Shown here: positions 1 to 27,655 of the stretch, in pieces | Layout of the letters: each line of letters begins with the position of its first letter | How positions within the stretch are numbered: position 1 is the first letter of the stretch | Virus record (IMG/VR): IMGVR_UViG_3300048575_000415 | Coordinates: 1-42,799 of that record | Direction: 5' to 3' (one strand) | DNA: 42,799 nt | Source of the DNA: a virus | Taxonomy: Duplodnaviria; Caudoviricetes | Notes under the pieces: model-generated | The model's input: only the letters and a program-made list of their open reading frames with translations | Database searches by the model: none | Told to the model about the DNA's origin: nothing | Translations under genes and position numbers: made by a program

Positions 1-1215
1 TCAGCGGCTGTTCCGGCGCGCCAAACGCAGCTCGGCAACCCGCGTGGATTTCTCCAATCCAGAGCGATCGTAATGCTTCGACGTCCGCAGCTGCGTGTGG
101 GTCGCAGACTTCATGACGTCCACCGGGGTCGCCCCGGCGTCGTAGGCTTCCGTCACCGCGCCGGCGCGGGAATCCATGTTCCACACGTCGTCGGGGATTC
201 CTGCGGCCCGCGCAATCAGCCGAAAGCGGTCGGCGAAGTGTCGGGTCGAATACGGACGCCCGGTTGATTCGTCCTTGATCACCGGCCCCACCATGTCGGC
301 ATCGGCCAGCTCGGCGACGACATCGGCGAACAGCGACAGGTCGTGCTCGGAGATCTCGTTGCCATTCGATTTGGACGTTGGCTTTCGCAGGACGAGATCC
401 CGCGACAGGTGCTCGCCCCAGAGCAGCCCCCACTGCCACCGCTTGCCGTGGTAGCTGATGCCACCGGCGACCGGCTTACCGTCCTCCCGGACCCACTCCC
501 CGATCACATCCTTCTGCCGCAACATCGCGGCGAACTGGATGGCGATCGCGCGAGCCATGCTCGGGAAGCCCAATTCGCGAGCCTTCGCCCGGAATGCCGT
601 CACCTGGCCGAAGCTCATGCGTTGCCGCCGCTTCGATGGATTCTCGAACTCCATATCCGACAGGATCTGCGTCAGCTGCAGGCACGCGTTGTCTCGCAAC
701 TCCCCGCCGAACTTCACCACGATGCGGAGCAGCTGGATGCAGCCGTAGGCCGTCCGCCCGTAATCAGGCCCTAGAGGCCCTTCCGGGTGGCGCCAGGCCT
801 TGTACCAGCGTCGGACGTCCCGCCCGTTCACCGCGTCGATACGGCGGTCTCCGACGGTCGCCTTCAGCTTCTTGAGGTAGCTGTCGTATGTGCGCCGAGT
901 AGCCTCGCGGACCTCACGGTACGGCGATTCCTCGTCGGTCTGGTACATGTCGACGAGCCAGGCCACCGTCCCCTGTGGGCTCAGCATCGGCCTAGCGTGG
1001 CCGCCGGCCGCCCAGTCGAGCATCTGCGCCTGAAGCCGGAGGCACTGCGCCACCATCTCGGCCCGATCGCTCTCCGTGTCGTCGTAGTGCAACCTCACTG
1101 TTTTCGGGGTGTACCCGCGTTTGACCATCGCGGGTGGCGCGACCCAGTAGTGGTCGACCCTCCCGCTCTTGCGCTTCAGGCTCTTAAGCCCGGGCGCGTC
1201 GCTTTGCTGTGGCAT
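1..1215 (-). CDS. int: Tyrosine recombinase / phage integrase
   Basis: Likely start ATG at 1215 (MPQQSDAPG). Catalytic-like residues LRQKD (R), TSKS (K), MDSR (HxxR position), ATH and HYDR (Y). Lies at the prophage edge. Confidence 0.9.
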   Translation of the reverse strand: MPQQSDAPGLKSLKRKSGRVDHYWVAPPAMVKRGYTPKTVRLHYDDTESDRAEMVAQCLRLQAQMLDWAAGGHARPMLSPQGTVAWLVDMYQTDEESPYREVREATRRTYDSYLKKLKATVGDRRIDAVNGRDVRRWYKAWRHPEGPLGPDYGRTAYGCIQLLRIVVKFGGELRDNACLQLTQILSDMEFENPSKRRQRMSFGQVTAFRAKARELGFPSMARAIAIQFAAMLRQKDVIGEWVREDGKPVAGGISYHGKRWQWGLLWGEHLSRDLVLRKPTSKSNGNEISEHDLSLFADVVAELADADMVGPVIKDESTGRPYSTRHFADRFRLIARAAGIPDDVWNMDSRAGAVTEAYDAGATPVDVMKSATHTQLRTSKHYDRSGLEKSTRVAELRLARRNSR

Positions 1216-1504
1216 TCCAATTCTCCTTTCCGTCGGCAATAGCCGGCACAGCAGAGTCGCGCAGGCCGGCGCGGCTGTCGAGCCACGCCCGCACCGCGGG
1301 CCAGTAGCGCCGGCCGACAAGAGGATCGGGTTGAGGGAGGCCATAGCGCGCCCACGTCACGGCAAGCGCGTTCCATTCGTTCAGCGCGCGCCGCCCTGGT
1401 CCCAAGACCGCCTCGGCGATCTGGGCCTCCTTCGGGTAGAGCGGCAGGGCTGCTGAACGAGCGGGAGCAACCGCGAACTGCGGTCCCACTACTTCATCAT
1501 TCAT
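1184..1504 (-). CDS. Excisionase-like small DNA-binding protein
   Basis: Overlaps the integrase start. GLPQPDPLVGRRYWPAVRAWLD segment resembles Xis-like winged-helix proteins. Start codon uncertain (1504 or 1525). Confidence 0.6.
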   Translation of the reverse strand: MNDEVVGPQFAVAPARSAALPLYPKEAQIAEAVLGPGRRALNEWNALAVTWARYGLPQPDPLVGRRYWPAVRAWLDSRAGLRDSAVPAIADGKENWNATAKRRARA

Positions 1505-3975: not shown

Positions 3976-4515
3976 ATGGCTGATCTGGGATTTGACTACG
4001 ATGCACCGACCGAGGAGCCGGTCAGCAACTTCGATCCGCTGCCTGCGGGCGACTATGTCGCCCAGGTTATCGCGTCGGAGATCAAGGACACACGCAATCA
4101 CACCGGCAAGATCCTGGCGCTTACCTGGGAGGTTATCGACGGTCCGTTTGAGCGTCGCCAGTTCTGGCAGAACATCAACTACCTCAACGACAGTCCGAAG
4201 GCGCAGGAGATCGGGCGGAAACAGCTCGACGAAGTCGCCTATTCCACCGGTGTGACGCGTCTGACCGACACCGACGACCTGCACTTCAAGCCGTGTCTAG
4301 TGCGCCTGAAGGTGTCGCCGGCGCAGGGCGACTTCCCCTCGAAGAATGAGGTCGCGACGGTCAAGCGCATCGGCTCGACGAGCACACCGCGGCGGCAGGA
4401 GCCCCAGCGGCACGCGGAACCCGAGGCGCGTGCAGAGACGCCTCCGACGCGTTCGGCATCCAGCCAGCGGCCGGCAGCTTCCGGCGATAATCGACCCTGG
4501 ACGAAGCGAGCGTGA
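3976..4515 (+). CDS. DUF669-like single-stranded DNA-binding protein
   Basis: FDPLPAGDY...WEVIDGPFERRQFW...KNEV core and a low-complexity tail ending PW. Canonical position after the Sak4-like gene; GGAGG RBS. Confidence 0.75.
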   Translation: MADLGFDYDAPTEEPVSNFDPLPAGDYVAQVIASEIKDTRNHTGKILALTWEVIDGPFERRQFWQNINYLNDSPKAQEIGRKQLDEVAYSTGVTRLTDTDDLHFKPCLVRLKVSPAQGDFPSKNEVATVKRIGSTSTPRRQEPQRHAEPEARAETPPTRSASSQRPAASGDNRPWTKRA

Positions 4516-4583
4516 TCCCTCGGCCGGCGGACTGACGCCGGCCAGTTCCCCCTGTCTGTCCTGATGGACGTCGCACGAGGACC

Positions 4584-4826
4584 GTGACGATGATCGATAC
4601 CACCTTGCCCAAACGCTTCCGGCTGCAGTTCCTCGCAACCGGCGGGGCCATCATTCAGTACGACACCCACGGCACCGTATTTGCAGCCTTCACCACGCCC
4701 AGCGACATGCTGACCTACCTTGCCGATGCCTTCGGCCTGGAGCCGATGTACGGCGGATTCCGCAAGAAGTTCGTGCCGCCGGTAAACGCCCTCCCCTTGA
4801 TCGAGGAGGGCACCGTCAATGGCTGA
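4584..4826 (+). CDS. Hypothetical phage protein
   Basis: 80-aa ORF overlapping the next gene start, with phage-like codon usage. Confidence 0.55.
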   Translation: MTMIDTTLPKRFRLQFLATGGAIIQYDTHGTVFAAFTTPSDMLTYLADAFGLEPMYGGFRKKFVPPVNALPLIEEGTVNG

Positions 4827-5511
4827 GTTCATCTATCTCGATATCGAGACTCTGCCGACACAGGACGGCGCGATCCGCGAGAAGATCGCCGCCGGCGTTC
4901 AGCCGCCCGGCAACATCTCCAAGGCCGAGACCATCGCGAAGTGGGAAGCCGAAACGAAGCCCCTCGCGGTCAAGAAGGCGGTGGCTGAGACGTCGTTCGA
5001 CGGCGGGCTCGGGCACGTCTGCTGCATCGGCTGGGCGGTAGGCGAAGCCAACCCCGAGGCACTCATCATCGACAAGGTGCGGGATGAGGCCGCGATGATG
5101 CGCGGCGCGTTCGACGCCATCGCCAAGGCGCGCAGCCACTACGCCGCTCCGGTGATCGTCGGGCACAACGTCGCCGCCTTCGACATTCGGTTCCTCTGGC
5201 AACGGGCCTTCGCGCTCGGCGTCGTGATGCCGCCCTGGTTTCCGCGCGACCCGAAGCCTTGGTCGGAGGCCGTCCACGACACGATGGCGATGTGGGCCGG
5301 CGCGCGCGACAGCATCAGCATGGACCGGCTGTGCGCCGCGCTCGGCCTCGACGGCAAGGGAAACGGCATCAGCGGCGCCGAAGTGGCCGATCGCTGGGCC
5401 GCCGGAGAGTTCGAGAAGATCGCCCAGTACTGCGCTGACGACGTCGCCCGGACGCGCGCGATCCATCGGAAGATGCTGATCGCCATGGGCCAGATCGAGG
5501 TGGCGGCATGA
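4819..5511 (+). CDS. DEDD 3'-5' exonuclease (PolB-exo/RNase H-like)
   Basis: YLDIET, GHNVAAFDIRFL and YCADDV motifs (ExoI/II/III). Confidence 0.85.
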   Translation: MAEFIYLDIETLPTQDGAIREKIAAGVQPPGNISKAETIAKWEAETKPLAVKKAVAETSFDGGLGHVCCIGWAVGEANPEALIIDKVRDEAAMMRGAFDAIAKARSHYAAPVIVGHNVAAFDIRFLWQRAFALGVVMPPWFPRDPKPWSEAVHDTMAMWAGARDSISMDRLCAALGLDGKGNGISGAEVADRWAAGEFEKIAQYCADDVARTRAIHRKMLIAMGQIEVAA

Positions 5512-7148
5512 CCTCGCTTCGGCCCTATCAGCAGGACGCGATCAATGCCGTCTTCGACTTCTGGGGCTCCGGCGGAGGCAATCCCCTGGTCGAGATGGCG
5601 ACGGGCACCGGCAAGTCCGTCGTGATCGCCGATCTCGCGCGACAGGTCTGCCAGTACCCCAGCCTGCGGGTGTTGATGCTCGTCCACGTCCGCGAGCTCG
5701 TCGAACAGAACTACCTGGCGCTCCGGCGGGTGTGGCCGGACGCACCCGCCGGCATCTACTCGGCGGGTCTCGGCCGACGTGACGCTTACCACCGGATCAC
5801 GTTCGCCTCGATCCAGAGCGTCTACAAGAAGGCGGCCATGCTCGGGCCACGTCAGGTCGTCTTCGTCGACGAGGCGCACCTGATACCGCTGGCGGGCGGC
5901 GGCATGTATCGCGAGCTGCTCATGCGGCTGCGCGACATGGATCCGGAGATGCGCGTCGTCGGGTTCACCGCAACGCCCTATCGCCTCGACAGTGGCCGGC
6001 TCGATCAGGGCGACGGCGCGCTGTTCGACGAGACGGTCTATTCCTACGGCATCGGGCCAGCGATCAGCGACGGCTACCTCTCGCCGTTGATCAGCAAGGC
6101 ATCGGCGACCGAGATCGATGTTTCTGGCGTGGCTCGGCGTGGTGGCGAGTTCGTCGCCGGCGCGCTCGAGGCTGCCGCCGATCTTGACCACCTCACGCAA
6201 TCCGCAGCGCGCGAGATCACCGAGTTCGGCGCCGATCGCCGGTCGTGGCTGGTGTTCTGCACCGGCATCAAACACGCCTTCAACGTCCGCGATGCACTTC
6301 GTGGGCTCGGCGTCTCCGCCGAGACGATCACCGGTGAGACTCCCGCGCAGGAGCGGGCGGGCATAATCCGAGCGTTCAAGGAAGGGCGGATTCGTTGCCT
6401 GACGAACGCTCAGGTTCTCACGACTGGCTTCGATGCCCCCGCCGTCGACCTCGTCGCCATGCTGCGCCCGACGCTCTCGACTGGCCTCTATGTCCAGATT
6501 GTCGGACGCGGCACCCGCCTCGCCGTCGGGAAGGCCAACTGCCTGGTTCTCGATTTCGCCGGCAACGTCCGCCGGCACGGCCCCGTCGACACCATCGAGA
6601 TCAAGCCGAAGCGCGAGAAGGGTGAGGGCTCGAGCGAAGCCGAGGCCAAGGTCACAGTCGACAGCGAGCGGGCAAAAAAGTGCCCCTCCTGCGAAAGCTT
6701 GATCGCGGTGAACGCGCGGATCTGCCCCCACTGCGAGCACGTTTTCCCGGCGCCGTTGAAGCCCAAGCATCAGGCTCAGGCCGAGGCGATCCCGATCCTG
6801 TCGACCGAGAGGACCGCGGCGGAAGAGATCCCGGTGCTTTTGTGGTCCGCGCGCCGGCATACGAAGCCTGGAGCGCCCGACAGCTTGCGCGTCGAGTATA
6901 TGGCGGGCCTGCAGGCCATCCCGGAATGGGTGTTGCTCGAGCACGGCGGTTTCCCGGGCCAGAAGGCGCAGCGGTGGTGGTCGAAGCACGGCGGCATGAT
7001 GCCGGCACCGCGCACCGTGGCCGAGGCTCTCGCACGCTGGGACGAACTGACGCAGCCGCTCGCGATCACCGCTCGCCGATCAGGCCGGTGGTGGGAGATC
7101 CTCGGCTGCAAGATGCCGCCGGTGCGCACGCGGGAGGCCGCGGAATGA
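5508..7148 (+). CDS. SF2 DEAH helicase with C-terminal zinc ribbon (YejH/RadD-like)
   Basis: LRPYQ, ATGTGKS, DEAH, TATP, LTTGFD, QIVGRGTR and CPSC...CPHC motifs. Confidence 0.92.
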   Translation: MTSLRPYQQDAINAVFDFWGSGGGNPLVEMATGTGKSVVIADLARQVCQYPSLRVLMLVHVRELVEQNYLALRRVWPDAPAGIYSAGLGRRDAYHRITFASIQSVYKKAAMLGPRQVVFVDEAHLIPLAGGGMYRELLMRLRDMDPEMRVVGFTATPYRLDSGRLDQGDGALFDETVYSYGIGPAISDGYLSPLISKASATEIDVSGVARRGGEFVAGALEAAADLDHLTQSAAREITEFGADRRSWLVFCTGIKHAFNVRDALRGLGVSAETITGETPAQERAGIIRAFKEGRIRCLTNAQVLTTGFDAPAVDLVAMLRPTLSTGLYVQIVGRGTRLAVGKANCLVLDFAGNVRRHGPVDTIEIKPKREKGEGSSEAEAKVTVDSERAKKCPSCESLIAVNARICPHCEHVFPAPLKPKHQAQAEAIPILSTERTAAEEIPVLLWSARRHTKPGAPDSLRVEYMAGLQAIPEWVLLEHGGFPGQKAQRWWSKHGGMMPAPRTVAEALARWDELTQPLAITARRSGRWWEILGCKMPPVRTREAAE

Positions 7149-10964: not shown

Positions 10965-12866
10965 TTACGCAGGATCCGAGCCCCACTCGATGTCCGCAGG
11001 ATCGAAGATATCGCTATTAGTCCTCACGCAATTTCTACCACTCGCCTTTGCAGCGTAGAGAGCTTGATCGGCCCTCGTGATCAACTGCTCAGACGACTGC
11101 GCGTTGTCTCCGTTGGGCCAGAATGTCGCCACGCCGATGCTGACGGTAACGACGCCGACGCGCCCATTCTGTTCATGCGGTATTGCGAGCGATTCAATCG
11201 CAGACCGCACATATTCGGCAATACTCTGAGCGGCAGCGCCGTCGGTATTGGGAAGTAATAGCACGAATTCTTCGCCTCCATATCGTGCAGCAAGATCAGA
11301 GGACCTCTTTGCAACCCGATTAAGTGTATCTGCTATAATCCTAATGCACTGATCACCGACTTGATGACCATAGGTATCATTGAATTCTTTGAAACGGTCT
11401 CCATCAACAAACAGAAGAGATACTGGCTTCCGGTCTCTCGCCGCTCGCATCCATTCTTGATCGAGACGCTCCGAGAACACCCGACGATTTGCCAAGCCGG
11501 TGAGGGAATCGGTGGCGGCGAGCGATTCGAGCTTTCGTTCGAGCAGATACCCTTCGGTGTCATCGCGGACGACAACTATCAAGTTGCTTTCTTGCTCCGT
11601 TTGGGCGAGGCGCACGCTTGCAGTGACGTGCTTTACGTCGCCGCCCTCTCCCGCGATAGCAAAGCTAACTCGGCCTTCGTTTGTCACTCCACTTGCGACA
11701 CCGTTGAGCACTTCCGCCAAGCGGGTGGCGTCGCCCGGCTCTGAGAGGTCAGCCAGAGGCATTCCCTGCAGGCTGGCAACTTCCCGAGACGTGATGCGCG
11801 CCGCAGCTGGCGAAGCGTAGAGGATCACCCCGTTCAGCCGCGTTCTGAAAACGGCATCGCCTGAGCCCTCCGCCAGAACGCGGAATTCCATCTCTCGCTT
11901 CAGGAGCATATCCGCAACTCTCTGGCGGCGCCTGATCTGCGATAGAATCGCGAAGCCAAGCAGTCCAACTGCTAAAGACGCGGCAATTCGAAATGCAATT
12001 CTGTATATTGCACTGTCTTTCCAGGCTTTTATTATATTCGCCTCTGGCTGCGTAACCACGATAGAAAGAGGAATGATCGCACTGCGCCGAATTGAGGCCA
12101 CAAGTATTTCACCACTTACGGTGCTCTGGAACTTGAATGAAAACGAATCTCGGGACCCGACTTCTTCTTCCGTTGCAGGAGGAAAGCGAAAGTTCGCACC
12201 AAGAGCGTCCGGCACGAATGGATAGCGTGACAGTAAGGTTCCACCCTTCCTGAATAAGCTAACAGCAATTCCTGCGCCGCCAGATGTTGATTTATAGAAC
12301 TCCGAAATCTGTTTGGCATCAACGTGCGCCAGCACAACACCACTGAACAATCCGTTCTTGCTGTCAGTGCGACGAGATATCGGTATCACCCATCTTCTTG
12401 AGTGATCGAGATATATAGGGCGCCCAATCTGCAAACCTCGATCGAGGTTGGCATTGTGGTATTGAAAGACAGGAGAATTAGCGATGCTCGACGGCATCTC
12501 TTCGCTATCGCTAAAGCCTGCCTGCCAAGCACCATCCTCGTCGAATATAGAGACTTCTCGAATACTCGATGCCATCTCGGCACTTTGCCGCATTCGCTCA
12601 ATCACCTCGAGCGCATGCGGCTTATCGCCAACAGATTCCAGCACATACCGAACGAATACGACGGCCAGATCTGCTGAATTAAACGTCTCTTCCGCGTCCT
12701 TTAGGAACAATCTGGAGAAATTACTAATATCATCTTCCGCCTTTATCTGTGCGGCGGTGTAAAGCTCTCTTTCCGGCTCGATCGCACTTAGTGCAATGCC
12801 GGCTGATGAGACGAAGATGAATGCCGCAAGACCGCGGTTCATCCATATTTGCGGCAAGGAAAACAA
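10965..12866 (-). CDS. Membrane sensor diguanylate cyclase (Cache-PAS-GGDEF)
   Basis: Two TM segments flanking a Cache-like domain, then PAS, TDSLTGLANRR, DRFKEFNDTYGHQVGD, RSSD I-site and GGEEF active site. Visibly lower GC and antisense to the backbone. Start may be 12842. Confidence 0.93.
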   Translation of the reverse strand: MFSLPQIWMNRGLAAFIFVSSAGIALSAIEPERELYTAAQIKAEDDISNFSRLFLKDAEETFNSADLAVVFVRYVLESVGDKPHALEVIERMRQSAEMASSIREVSIFDEDGAWQAGFSDSEEMPSSIANSPVFQYHNANLDRGLQIGRPIYLDHSRRWVIPISRRTDSKNGLFSGVVLAHVDAKQISEFYKSTSGGAGIAVSLFRKGGTLLSRYPFVPDALGANFRFPPATEEEVGSRDSFSFKFQSTVSGEILVASIRRSAIIPLSIVVTQPEANIIKAWKDSAIYRIAFRIAASLAVGLLGFAILSQIRRRQRVADMLLKREMEFRVLAEGSGDAVFRTRLNGVILYASPAAARITSREVASLQGMPLADLSEPGDATRLAEVLNGVASGVTNEGRVSFAIAGEGGDVKHVTASVRLAQTEQESNLIVVVRDDTEGYLLERKLESLAATDSLTGLANRRVFSERLDQEWMRAARDRKPVSLLFVDGDRFKEFNDTYGHQVGDQCIRIIADTLNRVAKRSSDLAARYGGEEFVLLLPNTDGAAAQSIAEYVRSAIESLAIPHEQNGRVGVVTVSIGVATFWPNGDNAQSSEQLITRADQALYAAKASGRNCVRTNSDIFDPADIEWGSDPA

Positions 12867-20035: not shown

Positions 20036-21016
20036 ATGGCTATCACCCCGATCACCCCCTCGGTCACCGTGCCGATCACCATGGGCGAATATGCGAAGAC
20101 GCTGCCGGAGACGTCGGCCGAGCGCACCTTCGTCGAGAACATGGTCAAGACGTCCGACGTGCTCGCTGCCTTCCCGATGCTCCCGGCCAACAACGGCAAG
20201 AAGGAGTTCCAGGAGATCGCGTCGCTGCCGTCGGTCGGCTTCCGCAACTTCAACGCCAACGGCAACGAGTCGACCGGTAGCTTCAGCCTGCGCGAGGAAG
20301 ACACCTTCCCGATCGACGAGTATGTGAAGGTCGACCGCGCCATGGTCGACCGGCTCGGCAACACGCACCGCTACAAACAGCAGGAGCTGAAGACCATCGC
20401 CCTGGCGCAGATGGCCTCGCAGGTCATCATCAAGGGCGACAACACGGCGTCGGGCGCCAAGCAGCCGGCCGGCCTGCAGTCGCGGTGCAACTCGCTCAAC
20501 ACCAACCTGATCCACAACTCCGTCGCCGCCGGCGGTGCCGCGCTGTCGCTCGGCAACCTCGACATCCTCTACTGGCTGGTCAACAAGCCGACGCACTGGA
20601 TCTTCCCGCGCGGCCTGATGCCGTTCCTCGACATCGCCGCGCGCAACCCGAACCTCACCGGCCAGTCGCTGGTCTACGACAACGGCGTCAACGAGTTCGG
20701 CCGCCGAGTCATGCGCTACAAGGGCCTGCCCATCCTCTACGGCTACGATCCGGACGACACGGCCGATCTCTTGCCGTTCTCCGAGGTCGGTACCGGCGGC
20801 GGCGCGGCGGTCACCGGCTCGATCTATTGCGTCGCGTTCGGTGACGGCAAGCTCTACGGCATCGAGCAGACGGCGCTGGCGGTGGAGGACGAGGGCCTGA
20901 TCAAGGGCACGCCGTTCCTCTCCACCCACATCAAATGGGACTGGGGCATCGCCCGCGAGCACCCGCGCTCGGCCGCCCGCCTCACCTCCATCACCGCCCA
21001 GACCATCGTCGCCTGA
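20036..21016 (+). CDS. Major capsid protein
   Basis: 326 aa with strongly biased codon usage. LPSVGFRNFN, VDRAMVD and IKWDWGIA...AARL resemble Bbp17-like capsid proteins; GAGGA RBS. Confidence 0.85.
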   Translation: MAITPITPSVTVPITMGEYAKTLPETSAERTFVENMVKTSDVLAAFPMLPANNGKKEFQEIASLPSVGFRNFNANGNESTGSFSLREEDTFPIDEYVKVDRAMVDRLGNTHRYKQQELKTIALAQMASQVIIKGDNTASGAKQPAGLQSRCNSLNTNLIHNSVAAGGAALSLGNLDILYWLVNKPTHWIFPRGLMPFLDIAARNPNLTGQSLVYDNGVNEFGRRVMRYKGLPILYGYDPDDTADLLPFSEVGTGGGAAVTGSIYCVAFGDGKLYGIEQTALAVEDEGLIKGTPFLSTHIKWDWGIAREHPRSAARLTSITAQTIVA

Positions 21017-21605: not shown

Positions 21606-21715
21606 GGACCGACCATGTTCAAGACCATCTACCACGTCACCAACGGCCCCACCGTCATGTACGAGATCGACGCCCGGCACGCGCTCGCGAACTTCCCGGA
21701 GGAGTGGAAGGAGAC
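21606..21715 (+). repeat. Direct repeat copy 1 flanking the Hxs cassette
   Basis: GGACCGACCATGTTC...CATGTACGAGATCGACGCCCGGCACGCG...TTCCCGGAGGAGTGGAAGGAGAC matches 25149-25254. Confidence 0.85.
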
Positions 21716-21782
21716 AGAGCGGGACGTGGACAACACCACCGGTCAAGAGGCGGACTCGCCGTCTCGGCCTAAGTCAAAATAG
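21615..21782 (+). CDS. Small 55-aa phage protein (absent from the ORF track)
   Basis: GAGGA RBS, then MFKTIYHVTNGPTVMYEIDARHALANFPEEWKETERD...SK*. Backbone-like codon usage. A degenerate copy lies at 25158. Confidence 0.7.
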   Translation: MFKTIYHVTNGPTVMYEIDARHALANFPEEWKETERDVDNTTGQEADSPSRPKSK

Positions 21783-21936
21783 CCCCGACACCGCTCACTC
21801 GCGGCTTGCCTGCAATCATCACCGAGCCGCCGTGTCCACCTACGCATTACCACGGCTACGCCTTGAAACAAATTGCAACCCAGCACGTCTCGGGCGTACC
21901 ACACCGGAGTAGTTCAACTAGCGTTTGGGGGATAAG

Positions 21937-22200
21937 GTGGCGAATAGAGCTTTTCTCGGGCCGCTCGCTGTCGTTTTTGCGCTGCTGGACAGCCAGGCCA
22001 ATGCAACCCTTCCGGATGTCGCCGGCGCACCGGTAGAGCCGACAAGCGTGACTGCCGCTTCACCGCGCATCGCTGTTGGTGTGACGCTCGAGAGGTCGGA
22101 GACCTCAGATATCGTGTTGGCGGCTCACTCCAGCCACGCGAGCCACGCGAGCCACGCCAGTCACGCAAGCCATTGTTCCGGATATAGCAACTGCCGGTGA
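21937..22200 (+). CDS. hxsA: His-Xaa-Ser repeat precursor peptide (HxsA-like)
   Basis: GTG start after GGGGATAAG. Signal-peptide-like N-terminus (FLGPLAVVFALL...ANA). C-terminal HSS-HAS-HAS-HAS-HAS-HCS-GYSNCR, with the repeats at 22126-22179. Confidence 0.85.
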   Translation: MANRAFLGPLAVVFALLDSQANATLPDVAGAPVEPTSVTAASPRIAVGVTLERSETSDIVLAAHSSHASHASHASHASHCSGYSNCR

Positions 22201-22212
22201 TGGTGTCCGCAG

Positions 22213-22509
22213 ATGACCTGCGAAGTCCGGTTCGATCTGCGCGTATTTGCGCAGGATGCGATCAAGAAGGCCCTCTATCGCTTCAGCGACAGGATTACCT
22301 ATTCGCTTTCGATAGAGGGCCACGAACTTGCATGCGTGATTTCACTGCGCACCGATGCGCCAGCCGAGTCCGTGCTCGATGTTGTGATTGAGAAGCTTCG
22401 AGTTGAGGTTCTGGATCAGGATCTCCGAGAGCGGCTATTTGAGCAGACGGCGCCCTATCGCAACGCTGTGCTCGCATTGGCTTTCTCTCGGACAGGACTG
22501 CAGGGATGA
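22213..22509 (+). CDS. hxsD: His-Xaa-Ser system protein HxsD
   Basis: AIKKALYRFSD and EVLDQDLRERLFEQTAPYRNAVLALAFS match the HxsD pattern; lies between the precursor and the radical SAM genes. Confidence 0.85.
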   Translation: MTCEVRFDLRVFAQDAIKKALYRFSDRITYSLSIEGHELACVISLRTDAPAESVLDVVIEKLRVEVLDQDLRERLFEQTAPYRNAVLALAFSRTGLQG

Positions 22510-23966
22510 ACACGTTCCTGCCCAGGGAGCGCTTTGCACCGCCAAAGCAGGACTATTCGTTACTCCCATTTCGATTTCACCGACTACGAGATAATGCTGT
22601 CCTCGTTACGAGCCTGGCAGGCGATTATTGTGTCGTCTCCCGCAGCGATTTCGAGTCCTTTACGGGTGGAACGTTGAGCTCGACGACACGCGCCTACGCT
22701 GATCTCGAAGCTCATGGCATTCTACTGAGTGATCCTGACTCGATTCATACTGAGCTCTTGGCCATTCGCCTGAGAACAAAGCTCTCACCGCTTTCTCGCT
22801 TTACCTCACTGCACATGTTTGTCGTTACGCTGCGGTGTAACCATGCTTGCGCGTACTGCCAGGTTTCAAAGCGGGATGAGGCCGCTGGCAAATTTGACAT
22901 GTCGGTCGACACCGCTCGAAGAGCAGTCGATATAGCTCTCTCTTCGCCATCCGCGGACATCAAGATCGAATTCCAGGGTGGCGAGCCGTTGTTGAACTTC
23001 TCTACTGTTGATTTTATCACGCAGTACGCCAAACAAAGCGCTCGACGCCTCGGAAAGAGTGTCACGTTTGTTATGGCAACAAACTTAAGCAGGGCGACCG
23101 AAAGCGTTCTTGACTATTGTCGGCTGAACAATATCCAAATATCCACGTCGCTGGATGGCCCAAAAGACCTTCACAATCTCAATCGACCCATGACCGAGGG
23201 CGACAGCTTTGACAGTGTTGCATCCGGTATAGAGACCGCCCGAAAGGCACTTGGAAAGTATAATGTAAGCGCTTTGATGACGACAACCGAGCACAGTCTT
23301 GGGCGTGTACGAGAGATCATCGATACATATGTCGAGATGGGATTTCCTGGCATTTTCCTGCGCCCGCTCTCTCCATATGGCTTCGCCATAAAGACTAGAG
23401 CCTACCGAAAGTATGACACAAGGCGCTGGCTTGAGTTCTATGATGAGGGTCTTGACTATATTTTAGAGCTAAACAGAAAGGGGCTCGTCTTCAGTGAGTT
23501 CTATAGCAGCATCATCCTAAAGAAGATTTTGACGCCATTTTCCCCCGGATACGTAGACCTGATGAGCCCTTCAGGCATCGGAATATCCGGGGTTATCTAT
23601 AACCACGATGGTGGAGTGTATGCCTCAGATGAAGGTCGAATGCGCGCAGAGATGGGTGACAAGACCTTCTACCTAGGAGACGTCAACTCCAACAGTTATG
23701 CTCAGATCTTCACTTCTGATGCTCTGCTTGATCCGCTTGAACGTTCGTTTTCTGCGTCTGTTCCCATGTGCTCAGACTGCGCCCTCGAGCCGTTCTGTGG
23801 AGCCGAGCCGGTGTATCATCATGCGACACAGGGCGATTTTGTTGGCCTCAAGCCCACATCCGGATTCTGCGAGAGAAATACTCACGTTATCGAGCGCCTG
23901 ATCGGAATTCTTGAAGGGGGCGGAGAAGAGGCCCGCATTCTCCGTCAATGGAGCGTCATGTGTTAG
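22506..23966 (+). CDS. hxsB: His-Xaa-Ser system radical SAM/SPASM maturase HxsB
   Basis: LLPFRF N-terminus, CNHACAYCQVS, IKIEFQGGEPLLNF, STSLDGP, YASDEGRM and CSDCALEPFCGAEPV. Confidence 0.9.
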   Translation: MNTFLPRERFAPPKQDYSLLPFRFHRLRDNAVLVTSLAGDYCVVSRSDFESFTGGTLSSTTRAYADLEAHGILLSDPDSIHTELLAIRLRTKLSPLSRFTSLHMFVVTLRCNHACAYCQVSKRDEAAGKFDMSVDTARRAVDIALSSPSADIKIEFQGGEPLLNFSTVDFITQYAKQSARRLGKSVTFVMATNLSRATESVLDYCRLNNIQISTSLDGPKDLHNLNRPMTEGDSFDSVASGIETARKALGKYNVSALMTTTEHSLGRVREIIDTYVEMGFPGIFLRPLSPYGFAIKTRAYRKYDTRRWLEFYDEGLDYILELNRKGLVFSEFYSSIILKKILTPFSPGYVDLMSPSGIGISGVIYNHDGGVYASDEGRMRAEMGDKTFYLGDVNSNSYAQIFTSDALLDPLERSFSASVPMCSDCALEPFCGAEPVYHHATQGDFVGLKPTSGFCERNTHVIERLIGILEGGGEEARILRQWSVMC

Positions 23967-25114
23967 CTCTGCACGGACTGTGCGAAGTGTTGCAACGGTC
24001 GTCTTTGGACGGAACGCAGGTTTTTCGCCTTTCGGCTGATCGTGAGCGCCCCGGCAAGCACGCCGAGCGCGAGTGCTTTTTGTCGAACGACGGAGCCATA
24101 GCGGACCAGTTTTGCTGCGCCCTGATCAGAGGACCGGATCAGGGCCAGCCCAGGGCTCTCGCTGGTGGTGTCTATCGGTTGCCCGAAGACCTTTGTTACC
24201 TCTGCGACGGAGATATCGTTGCGATCCGCCCTTCGGGGGATATTCACGTATACTACCGTATCAACGCGCCAATTAACTTCTTTCTTATTACAGAGCGATG
24301 CAACAACCACTGCATAATGTGCTCTCAGCCACCAAAGCACATTGACGACAGCTATTTGCTCGTTGAAATCATGGAGGTAATCAGACGGATTCCTTTAGCG
24401 ACTAGAGCCATTGGCTTCACTGGCGGTGAACCGACGCTCTCCGGCCCAGGTTTTGTCGAAGTCCTTAAGGCTGCATCCGAAAATCTCCCGGATACCGAGA
24501 TCCTCGTACTCTCGAATGGGAGGACCTTCGCGGATGAAGAGGTTGTCAGCAGCCTGTCGTTGTTAAATCAGAAAAACATCACGTACTGCGTGCCGGTGCA
24601 CTCGATGTCGGCGGCCACGCATGATTATATTGCGCAGAGACGCGGGGCCTTTTCAGAGACCGTTGCCGGCCTCTTCTCGCTGCAGAAGCTGGGTGCGCGC
24701 ATCGAACTGCGCGTCGTAATTCATAGAGAAAACTATAAACACTTAACTGGAATAGCAGAGTTCATATTCAGAAATCTCACGTTCGTTGATCATATTGCGT
24801 TCATGGGGCTCGAACCCACCGGACTGGCGCGCGACAACATAGAACAGCTTTGGATCGATCCTTGGGAATATAGGGACCAGCTCGCAGACGCTGTACTTCG
24901 TCTTGCGGACTATAGGATGAACGTCTCGATCTTTAATACACCGCTGTGTCTGCTGCACGAGCAGTGCCACCCGTTCGCTCGCCAGTCGATCAGTGATTGG
25001 AAGAATGAGTTCGTTCCTCAATGTGGTGATTGCTCCAAAAGGACATCCTGTGCCGGCTTCTTCACGTCGGCTGACGTCGCGCGCAGCCGGCATATTGCGG
25101 CTCTTACCCTTTAG
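23960..25114 (+). CDS. hxsC: His-Xaa-Ser system radical SAM protein HxsC
   Basis: TERCNNHCIMCSQPP, FTGGEPTL, LSNGR and SISDWKNEF..CGDC....CAGFF. Start 23960 (GTG) or 23948. Confidence 0.9.
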   Translation: MLALHGLCEVLQRSSLDGTQVFRLSADRERPGKHAERECFLSNDGAIADQFCCALIRGPDQGQPRALAGGVYRLPEDLCYLCDGDIVAIRPSGDIHVYYRINAPINFFLITERCNNHCIMCSQPPKHIDDSYLLVEIMEVIRRIPLATRAIGFTGGEPTLSGPGFVEVLKAASENLPDTEILVLSNGRTFADEEVVSSLSLLNQKNITYCVPVHSMSAATHDYIAQRRGAFSETVAGLFSLQKLGARIELRVVIHRENYKHLTGIAEFIFRNLTFVDHIAFMGLEPTGLARDNIEQLWIDPWEYRDQLADAVLRLADYRMNVSIFNTPLCLLHEQCHPFARQSISDWKNEFVPQCGDCSKRTSCAGFFTSADVARSRHIAALTL

Positions 25115-25148: not shown

Positions 25149-25282
25149 GGACCGACCATGTTCGAGGCCGCACCCCCACGACTCCACCCGCCGCCATGTG
25201 CGAGATCGAAGCCCAGCACGCGCCGGCGAATTTCCCGGAGGAGTGGAGGGAGACTGAAGAGGCGGGGGTCGGCGCCGCCTAA
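25149..25282 (+). pseudogene. Frameshifted second copy of the 55-aa gene (direct repeat copy 2)
   Basis: First-to-second ATG distance is 38 nt versus 42 nt in the intact copy. The downstream frame reads MCEIEAQHAPANFPEEWRETE versus MYEIDARHALANFPEEWKETE. Confidence 0.75.
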
Positions 25283-25391: not shown

Positions 25392-27512
25392 TTATGGACG
25401 CAAATCACCGGCATTGTCATGTGGCTCAGTATCCCCAACCGCGGCGCTCAGGTGGCGATATATGAACTCAGACAGCTTGTGGCGCAGCCACTCAAGAGCT
25501 GTGCCGGCGCCCCTATACTTCAAAGTGTCTAGGGCGGAGATCAGGTTCACCCCTCCCAGCATATATTTAACAACGCTTTCAAATGCCGTTTTCGATGAAA
25601 GACCAGCCAAGTCGACTATTATCAGGACAGCGAAAGCCACTAGCAGTGCAATTCTTATGAAATTAACAATCCACGCAGACGCCTGATTAGAGCGCTTTCG
25701 CAGAAGTTCTTCGGTTTTGGTGCGCATTGAATGACGCTCGTCCGCGCGCCCTTTAGCTTCGCCGCGCGACAACTCTTCTGAAATTCGCCGAGCAGCCACC
25801 AGCTCTGCGCGTTTCAGTTCCTCTGCTTTGTCATGCTCAAACGAAGCAAGCTGCGCTGCACGTTCCTCTGAGGCGCGCCGCGATGCCCCCTCTTCGGCTT
25901 CAGCAGCCTGCCGAAATAGCTCAGCCACATTCAATTTTCTCAGCACAAGCGGCTGATTGAGCGACTCATCTCTGGCTACGTTTCTGGCCGTGTTGAGAAA
26001 TAGCATGGCATTGGCACGATCGGATACAAACTGGGGATTCTCCTCACTAAACCCTTTTAATACCTGAGCAAACTCATCGGCCCATGCCTCAGATGGTTGC
26101 ACTGCCGCATAACACGCGGCAAGAAGCTCCTTGCTCACCCTGTGCACTTCGAGTGTTTTCGTGGCCGTAATCCATGCCGCAGTCGTTATCTGACTCATCG
26201 TAAGGACTGGCGGCATCGAGCTGCTATCATACAAGTCAGTATGTTCCTTCACAAACTCTCGTGAGACGCGCTGCAACAACGAGTTTTTGGATACAAATAT
26301 ATGATGCGACTTTCCGATACTTGATTCTGCCCTTCCTCTTCTCAGCCTCACGACGAGTGCTACTACCTTGGCGTCATTGGTCGCGTTCTGCTCACTATAC
26401 CCGCGTTCGTTGACAAGTGCGGCAGACTTTAAGGCTTCGGCGAGCGCTCTCTCGTCGATCTGGAAGTAATCCTCGCTCTTCTTTTTACTGTACTGATACT
26501 CAAATAAGAATACGTTTAAAGATGCCAGACGCGATTCAAATGTTCCTGCTAGATCCTTGATTTGGCCTATGGAAATTTCTCCATGATGAAGTGCATCGGC
26601 CGTCTCCCCAAATATCTCTTTTCCACGAGTGTAGGCCCCCTCTAGGCTGTCGAGTATGCTTTGCACCTCTGACGCAGTCGGCGCGAAGTAGTAAGTTTTG
26701 CAGCCAAGGCTTTGTAGTGTTGAATTCATCTCTATAGTGGCAGCTCGGAGCAAAGATCCGGAAGTTCCGAGGAGCCGCAATAGAACTGATGTATCATAGT
26801 ATACAGAAAGTCCTTTGAAGGAGTCAGGACTTCCTACTTCCTGTATATTTGATATAAAGTCCTCGATTAGAACCCCCGAAAATACCTTTGTGATATCAGA
26901 AAACGTCTCAGGATCTTGCTTCTCGATAGTTTGTACAAACCTTGCAATCAGAAATATCTCTACCTCTGCAGGATTCCCCACCATTACGTCTCGGACGACA
27001 GTGGCGTTGACTGCCCGTATCGCTTCCCTTGCGCTTTCGGAACGAAGAAAGTTGATAAGGGCGTCACTCCAAGTTTGAGAAGCGGGGGGCTTTGCGACGC
27101 CATGTCGTCCCGCAAAGTCTGCCAGCTTTTCCTCAAGTGTATCAAAACTACTCGAAAGAGTAGGTAAATCGTAATCACCCTGCTGGCTTAAGGCCGTCGT
27201 GGGAAGTAGCGCCCGCGCAACACTGTTCCACTCTAGAAGACCGCGCCTCTGCATCCTTGAGAGGATCTGATCCACGGCATAAACAGGAACGCTCAGGCCA
27301 AGCCCAGCTAGCCCATCCGCAATTGCCCGGTGTTCCACTGGATGGACACCACCGTCACGGGCCACAACCGAGAGGACGAACGGTTGCAGACAGTCGAGGA
27401 GGTCGCTGACATCGTTTCGGACGTTGAGCGTCGCCGTCAAATACGCGTATGCCCTAACAGTCCGATCGGCTTCGCTATACCCGAGAAGTTGGTCGATTGC
27501 TTTACTCGCCAT
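25392..27512 (-). CDS. ~706-aa accessory protein: PIN-like domain, coiled coil, C-terminal TM helices
   Basis: ATG at 27512 after GGAGAG. YYDTSVLL, NDAKVV and FVSKN segments resemble PIN-domain motifs; E/R/A-rich coiled coil; hydrophobic IALLVAFAVLIIVDL. Lower GC and antisense. The ORF is solid; the fold is inferred. Confidence 0.7.
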   Translation of the reverse strand: MASKAIDQLLGYSEADRTVRAYAYLTATLNVRNDVSDLLDCLQPFVLSVVARDGGVHPVEHRAIADGLAGLGLSVPVYAVDQILSRMQRRGLLEWNSVARALLPTTALSQQGDYDLPTLSSSFDTLEEKLADFAGRHGVAKPPASQTWSDALINFLRSESAREAIRAVNATVVRDVMVGNPAEVEIFLIARFVQTIEKQDPETFSDITKVFSGVLIEDFISNIQEVGSPDSFKGLSVYYDTSVLLRLLGTSGSLLRAATIEMNSTLQSLGCKTYYFAPTASEVQSILDSLEGAYTRGKEIFGETADALHHGEISIGQIKDLAGTFESRLASLNVFLFEYQYSKKKSEDYFQIDERALAEALKSAALVNERGYSEQNATNDAKVVALVVRLRRGRAESSIGKSHHIFVSKNSLLQRVSREFVKEHTDLYDSSSMPPVLTMSQITTAAWITATKTLEVHRVSKELLAACYAAVQPSEAWADEFAQVLKGFSEENPQFVSDRANAMLFLNTARNVARDESLNQPLVLRKLNVAELFRQAAEAEEGASRRASEERAAQLASFEHDKAEELKRAELVAARRISEELSRGEAKGRADERHSMRTKTEELLRKRSNQASAWIVNFIRIALLVAFAVLIIVDLAGLSSKTAFESVVKYMLGGVNLISALDTLKYRGAGTALEWLRHKLSEFIYRHLSAAVGDTEPHDNAGDLRP

Positions 27513-27655
27513 AGCTCTCCCTCGACTCCCGATGCAACGCTGCTGCGCCAGCGTGGTAGTGGCGCACCCCAGTGTCAACGAGAACTTGTCCATAGGGGGC
27601 CGATACCTAGTATCCTCCCGGACAGGCCAGACCGAAATTTGCCTAAGGTTGCTGT

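Follow-up and report, generated by a model that had tools for sequence, protein, structure and literature searches.

Here we describe a four-gene His-Xaa-Ser (HXS) radical S-adenosylmethionine (SAM) operon, hxsA-hxsD-hxsB-hxsC, at positions 21937-25114 of IMGVR_UViG_3300048575_000415, an IMG/VR record of a tailed phage whose 42,799 bases (the entire virus record, without host flanks) are hereafter called the window. The unusual points of the operon lie in its precursor, an 87-residue HxsA that has neither a peptidoglycan-binding domain nor any basic residue in its repeats. The HXS family already has a published anti-phage role: in Escherichia coli, hxsD-B-C-A slows the entry of phage DNA and so inhibits 110 of 113 coliphages, an effect that takes all four genes (Li et al., Nat Commun 2026, PMC13128918; statements on the E. 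coli system throughout draw on part of its text). What sets the present operon apart is its compact, anchor-less and arginine-free precursor. An earlier note, made from the DNA letters alone, had taken the family to be without a settled role, a view that the E. coli work overturns, and had guessed at anti-phage defence, with which that work agrees. It passed over the signal-like N-terminus of HxsA, the duplicated gene at the borders of the cassette, the missing peptidoglycan-binding domain and the lack of basic residues in the repeats. On balance, we lean towards the reading that in a lysogen of this phage HxsA would be modified, exported and then stand in the way of incoming phage DNA, with the His-Ser array as its working part.

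The precursor gene hxsA (21937-22200, + strand, an open frame from a GTG start) encodes a predicted signal peptide at residues 1-23 (21937-22005, +), with a basic residue, a hydrophobic stretch and an A-N-A site, then a leader, and finally a core of six triplets and a 6-residue tail (22126-22197, +). The triplets, HSS-HAS-HAS-HAS-HAS-HCS, occupy residues 64-81 and are followed by six further residues, so that the earlier description of a peptide ending in six triplets was right about the array and wrong about the terminus. Such an array is beyond chance: the longest His-Xaa-Ser run elsewhere in the window is two, and runs did not exceed two in 100 of 100 base shuffles. Residues 64-81 contain no arginine or lysine, compared with three in the Klebsiella core, leaving His alone chargeable; cysteines stand at positions 80 and 86. 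A peptidoglycan-binding domain is absent from HxsA, and the C-terminal domain of Klebsiella HxsA finds no significant match in the window. At the site of the E. coli SHRSS motif stands SHCSG; with the published 'terminal Ser' taken from the text to be the fifth position, that position is Ser in 62 and Gly in 7 of 76 relatives. HxsA matches four HxsA models, all below their cut-offs, the best being HxsA2 (NF038296; 39.3 against 48 bits), with TIGR03979 at 31.8 against 121.65 bits. The closest relatives, L050 and L051, likewise fall below the HxsA2 cut-off, and L049 and L080 lie above it.

It is by its enzymes that the cassette is a member of the HXS systems. HxsB (22506-23966, +; 486 residues), a radical SAM/SPASM-type maturase, scores 577 bits against TIGR03978 (NCBIfam cut-off 370); HxsC (23960-25114, +; 384 residues from a GTG start, with an alternative ATG at 23948), a second radical SAM enzyme, scores 370 bits against TIGR03977 (cut-off 268); and HxsD (22213-22509, +; 98 residues), a small accessory protein, scores 52.2 bits against TIGR03976 (cut-off 50). 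The operon is therefore complete, as the earlier note had it, with four open + strand frames, and the family models that it named as a check recover three of the four proteins, HxsA being the one that stays below every cut-off. The CxxxCxxC motifs (HxsB C111/C115/C118, HxsC C114/C118/C121) and the C-terminal cysteines (HxsB C422/C425/C431/C455, HxsC C330/C355/C358/C364), previously described as intact, are invariant in three-way alignments with the Klebsiella and Leptospira-phage copies. In HxsD, Y22, D68 and R72 align with residues that were mutated in E. coli (the Tyr of LYW and the Asp and Arg of LLNDYxLRE). The predicted model of HxsD (pLDDT 92.8) has a beta-alpha-beta-beta-alpha topology, and no fold search with it reached a clear match (Z 7.7 and E 0.01 at best). 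PADLOC 2023 returned only weak viperin-model matches for HxsB and HxsC.

Judged by its sequence relatives, the compact form of HxsA is not a product of decay. Precursors were seen at 74 of 80 genome loci in a sample grown from this HxsB as seed, with many near-copies from Bradyrhizobium; the precursors number 76 in total, 59 of them short, and 51 of the 59 have no Arg or Lys in the core. The gene lies upstream in all 74 loci, a figure that reflects the HxsB-seeded search and is not a census. A loose rule of thumb for signals (basic residue, hydrophobic stretch, AxA) is satisfied by HxsA and by 30 of 31 aligned short precursors, and the two-Cys tail is common to three other Alphaproteobacteria (L050, L051 and L131), one of these relatives also having the Gly together with an intact clade-mate HxsB. 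The layout of signal, leader and repeats in short HxsA is that of the N-terminal third of long HxsA; a profile comparison of the two aligned 19 columns, all around the repeats, so that the equivalence of their leaders rests on position. On a quick HxsB tree of 49 rows, which has long branches, omits frameshifted and redundant rows and carries tail labels assigned partly by eye, the tail label switches four times: tails of the peptidoglycan-binding kind sit at two points and unrelated ones at two others. These four changes suggest that the tail is an optional appendage.

Several features of individual loci add to the variety of these precursors. HxsA C-terminal domains seemingly unrelated to the peptidoglycan-binding type occur in Planctomycetota (L062-L064, L066, L081, L099 and L105) and in Nocardia and Mycobacterium (L069, L070, L075-L079 and L095), with one type per lineage. 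Two tandem short precursors precede a single hxsD-B-C set at L054 (4983-5632) and L056 (277-883). Three viral contigs (L136, L137 and L140) have a short HxsA after hxsC, in the order B-C-A; the short form is not tied to A-D-B-C.

HxsB is predicted to carry an N-terminal recognition element (RRE) for peptides that are made by the ribosome and modified after translation (RiPPs), ahead of its radical SAM and SPASM domains. In its model (pLDDT 85.4), strands at residues 22-27, 31-36 and 41-45 are followed by helices at 46-53, 62-69 and 80-92, and residues 20-471 align with the RRE-containing maturase CteB (5WHY_B, chain 1-448) at Z 32.0, with a root-mean-square deviation of 4.1 over 393 aligned residues; anSME, which has no N-terminal RRE domain, ties as a structural match (Z 32.6). 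HxsD was considered as a stand-alone RRE and ruled out by its topology. According to the part of PMC6231123 that we draw on, the RRE domain of CteB takes up the leader as an added beta strand, and HxsA has a conserved hydrophobic motif at residues 49-53 (22081-22095, +) that would be the corresponding recognition strand. Of 56 dereplicated precursors, 47 have a hydrophobic triad in the stretch 9-20 residues ahead of the first His, and 7 have one in the next 10 residues upstream, a window of a different size. In the Klebsiella homologue the motif falls at residues 42-47, inside the 23-47 segment that is essential in E. coli, assuming that the two proteins share one numbering, with which a signal at 1-22 and a peptide at 48-78 fit. 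The predicted RRE and leader motif thus offer a possible reason why residues 23-47 are essential. The words 'leader', 'RRE' and 'RiPP' are absent from the main text of Li et al. (PMC13128918), and the main text of two RRE/radical SAM surveys makes no mention of Hxs.

HxsA of the E. coli system is a 214-residue protein that combines a predicted Sec-type signal with five basic HxS repeats and a domain for peptidoglycan binding. Defence requires the signal, this domain (mutation of which abolished it), the segment 23-47, every one of the repeats and the SHRSS motif, which is associated with a shift of +8 Da (PMC13128918). Processing and modification of HxsA are the work of HxsB, HxsC and HxsD, and HxsA reaches the periplasm; T7 escape mutations arose in internal virion proteins; and the mechanism as published relies on the peptidoglycan anchor together with the basic repeats. 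The chemistry was not reconstituted by those authors, since full-length HxsA is insoluble (PMC13128918). The -2 Da cross-link suggested in the earlier note is not the shift reported there, which is +8 Da. Its remark that the cassette contains neither a protease nor a transporter gene is correct as an observation; the absence is to be expected rather than telling, since in E. coli the other three genes do the processing and HxsA has its own predicted signal. The His-Xaa-Ser proteins also receive a passing mention in the accessible part of PMC9062424.

By analogy, we propose that the operon would be expressed in the lysogen, that HxsB would grip the leader motif through its predicted RRE domain, and that HxsC-HxsD and HxsB would modify the His-Ser array and cut the N-terminus back. 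The signal-like N-terminus would carry a product of about 3.5-6.5 kDa into the periplasm or to the outer face of the inner membrane, where the DNA-delivery channel would be obstructed by the modified His-Ser array itself and not by arginine charge or a wall anchor. A block at entry would suit a prophage, because its own induction would not be hindered. The sharpest form of this proposal, that a peptide of some 35-65 residues, lacking both a wall anchor and arginine, keeps phage DNA out after His-Ser modification, we advance tentatively and with rather more doubt than belief. If it is true, the modified His-Ser array would be the active unit of all HXS systems, with anchor-plus-electrostatics a particular case of it, and HXS would count as a true RiPP, guided by leader and RRE, which temperate phages employ as a broad defence against superinfection. 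Compact precursors are a natural test of the published model, since anchor and basic repeats are both absent and yet this form makes up 59 of the 76 precursors found among HxsB relatives; a short peptide would also be an easier substrate for the unexplained +8 Da modification.

The cassette lies between the capsid and tail genes (major capsid gene, 20036-21016; tail genes, 27424 onward; both by family search). Its left border is an intact copy of a small backbone gene of 55 codons (21615-21782, +), homologues of which follow the capsid genes of many related phages, and which shares 95% nucleotide identity over 124 nt with that of the closest phage, L001. Its right border is a decayed, frameshifted second copy (25149-25257, +), 79% identical to the left one over 114 nt (E 1.8e-22) with a net loss of 4 nt; there is no third copy in the window. 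The duplicated gene would be a scar fitting gain by recombination or duplication. The base composition of the cassette is foreign to the backbone, with a G+C fraction of 0.51-0.62 against 0.61-0.70 in five backbone genes, and of 0.56-0.66 against 0.88-0.95 at third codon positions. No hxs genes are present at 48 related capsid loci, and among the 42 having both landmarks the capsid-tail gap is at most 1.2 kb, an empty slot, in 28, compared with 6.7 kb here. The slot is a variable site with swappable cargo; the location, the low G+C content and the accessory (moron) character that the earlier note had proposed are all borne out.

Other cargo is found in the same slot. In L001, which is 93% identical in nucleotides over the capsid region, it holds (4275-6200, -) a 46%-GC gene for a Sll1717-family P-loop ATPase (206/75 bits) fused to a cold-shock domain, and the protein has sub-cut-off matches to the DS-41 and retron Se72 anti-phage models; the cold-shock domain resembles that of the retron Se72 effector, making this a candidate defence gene. 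In the window itself, a second low-GC passenger that is not an hxs gene, a 733-residue open reading frame (25392-27593, -) with 55 homologues, probably starts near residue 28, has conserved acidic residues and a hydrophobic C-terminus, and is a candidate accessory or defence gene. It has no family, PDB or named Atlas match, and a PIN-like reading made by eye found no support in Pfam, PDB or Atlas. As a missing anchor or partner for HxsA it is ruled out: it is on the opposite strand, beyond the decayed border gene, and has no tblastn match in the 84 hxsB loci L049-L132.

Phage carriage of hxs genes is recurrent and not unusual. An alignment search of IMG/VR returned 56 loci, of which 21 contain a true HxsB, the other 35 being dropped as weak matches to other radical SAM genes; a single-sequence HxsB search of viral contigs had found no match. 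A precursor is visible at 18 of these HxsB loci (6 short, 12 long), and 8 of the 13 that were flank-scanned have virion, packaging or lysis genes no more than 6.5 kb away. HxsB is matched by 2 of 50,697 phage records and by 328 plasmid records, 304 of them from Klebsiella, and in E. coli 29 of 126 HXS copies overlap prophages (PMC13128918). One viral contig (L135, 1-2200) has hxsB-C directly before a capsid gene of phrog_212, the same PHROG family as in this phage. In two alphaproteobacterial genomes (L050, 4162-5454; L088, 3311-4549) the hxs operon adjoins an integrase beside radC-map-sfsA, which suggests a shared integration site.

We also scanned the flanks of short-HxsA operons with Pfam, covering 148 proteins at 20 loci (of 28 prepared) and, as controls from the same genomes, 110 proteins in 16 stretches (20 were sought, of which 4 did not exist); genes were called by a rough script. 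Markers of mobility or defence (integrase, resolvase, transposase, conjugation, terminase, anti-restriction and defence nuclease domains) lie beside 13 of the 20 loci and beside 4 of the 16 control stretches (p 0.02), or, in a paired comparison, beside 10 of 16 and 4 of 16 (p 0.07). The flanks thus support mobility modestly and defence only weakly.

Several points weigh against a role for this HxsA in blocking phage DNA. Three features that are essential or central in E. coli, the peptidoglycan-binding domain, the basic repeats and the terminal Ser of SHRSS, have no counterpart in its sequence, and since these were the features tested there, HxsA here is not an effector of the E. coli type. 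HxsB is 34% identical to the Klebsiella type and falls elsewhere in the tree. In the flank scan, defence domains alone showed no significant enrichment (4 of 16 loci, 1 of 16 controls, p 0.33), and the marker categories were chosen after the hxs flanks had been seen. A reading of the slot as a defence hotspot rests on one relative; in more distant phages the slot holds co-directional, higher-GC open reading frames. The 154-nt intergenic stretch before hxsA (21783-21936, +), presumed to be the promoter region of the operon, yielded no sigma-70 site, and promoter and terminator scans were at chance level. Finally, a literature search that left subscription journals mostly uncovered found no test of a compact HxsA.

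The same observations bear on what else the peptide might be. A secreted, modified peptide outside defence, made for metal binding or competition, with only long, wall-anchored HxsA blocking phage DNA, would sit well with a His-rich, Arg-free core, two cysteines and no anchor, with the lack of basic residues in 51 of 59 short cores, with a leader and RRE laid out as in RiPPs, and with defence neighbours that are not significantly enriched. We nevertheless consider it unlikely: the four-gene machine and the repeat are the same as in the tested E. coli system, the repeated gain and loss of the tail on the HxsB tree suggests an appendage on a common core, and the 148 proteins flanking the 20 loci include no recurring gene for metal transport or immunity. 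Still less probable, in our view, is a defence of narrow range or at a different step, such as superinfection exclusion of related short-tailed phages, or a membrane action in which a host or phage partner replaces the anchor. The absence here of an anchor that is essential in E. coli would call for such a partner, and the carrier encodes internal virion proteins, the class in which the T7 escape mutations arose; against this, short-HxsA operons had no conserved partner gene next to them at the 20 flank-scanned loci, nor was one seen among the 84 hxsB loci compared with the 733-residue frame, and many short forms lie outside prophage-like flanks. That the operon is silent or decaying cargo is very improbable even with no sigma-70 consensus upstream, an HxsA below all cut-offs with Gly at the tested Ser, and a decayed right-hand border gene, given four open and coupled frames in the order A-D-B-C (a 12-nt gap between hxsA and hxsD, then overlaps of 4 nt between hxsD and hxsB and 7 nt between hxsB and hxsC), intact catalytic cysteines, and a two-Cys tail kept in three other Alphaproteobacteria, once together with the Gly and an intact clade-mate HxsB.

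The carrier has, by family searches, genes for terminase, a head-tail connector, an epsilon15-type capsid, tail, internal virion and lysis proteins, and a CI-like repressor. It is likely a temperate phage, as the earlier note had held; that it was a prophage we infer, since the record is a virus record without host flanks. Both record ends coincide exactly with the boundaries of open reading frames. The frame at 1-1344 (-) resembles by eye a tyrosine integrase and has no Pfam or PHROG match. The host is likely an alphaproteobacterium, since the nearest HxsB sequences, those of an Ancalomicrobiaceae bin (64%) and of Rhodobacter capsulatus (61%), form with this one a fully supported group on the quick tree. 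Between the primase and packaging regions is inserted a gene for a sensor diguanylate cyclase (10965-12866, -; Cache-like, PAS and GGDEF domains; GC 0.53), a phage-borne cyclic di-GMP signalling gene. Pieces of the cassette occur without differences in contigs of three sequencing runs from one study, one of which may be the source sample; in a fourth run, from another study, the structural genes are covered and the slot hardly at all, which proves nothing about the cassette.

Set beside known systems, the operon shares with E. coli HXS its four genes, two radical SAM enzymes with both cysteine clusters, HxsD, a precursor with a signal-like N-terminus, leader and tandem HxS repeats, and an occasional prophage location. 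It differs in having an HxsA of 87 rather than 214 residues, SHCSG rather than SHRSS, repeats without Arg, no peptidoglycan-binding domain, an HxsB with 34% identity to a Klebsiella form of that type, and the gene order A-D-B-C, whereas D-B-C-A accounts for 99.6% of the published copies (PMC13128918). CteB, which acts on CteA (PDB 5WGG, 5WHY) as an RRE-radical SAM-SPASM RiPP maturase, is 19% identical to HxsB, and it forms Cys thioether links on a Cys-rich peptide, whereas most HxsA lack Cys. T4 Imm and Sp, as described in part of PMC13128918, are likewise phage-encoded blocks to DNA entry, but of narrow range and with no enzymatic maturation, and homology with them is not claimed. Among family models, HxsB, HxsC and HxsD lie above cut-off within the TIGR03976-03979 set, and NCBIfam already models short precursors as HxsA2 (NF038296, 96 positions); HxsA here falls short of that model, and its two-Cys tail sets apart a small subgroup (L050, L051 and L131). 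Leptospira phage LnoZ_CZ214 (KF114877) is also a phage record with hxsA-D-B-C, annotated as Hxs, and a 99-residue precursor without a long tail, but it has Arg in its repeats, its HxsB is 43-45% identical, and its operon lies near an IS66 element, whereas that described here occupies a slot between capsid and tail genes.

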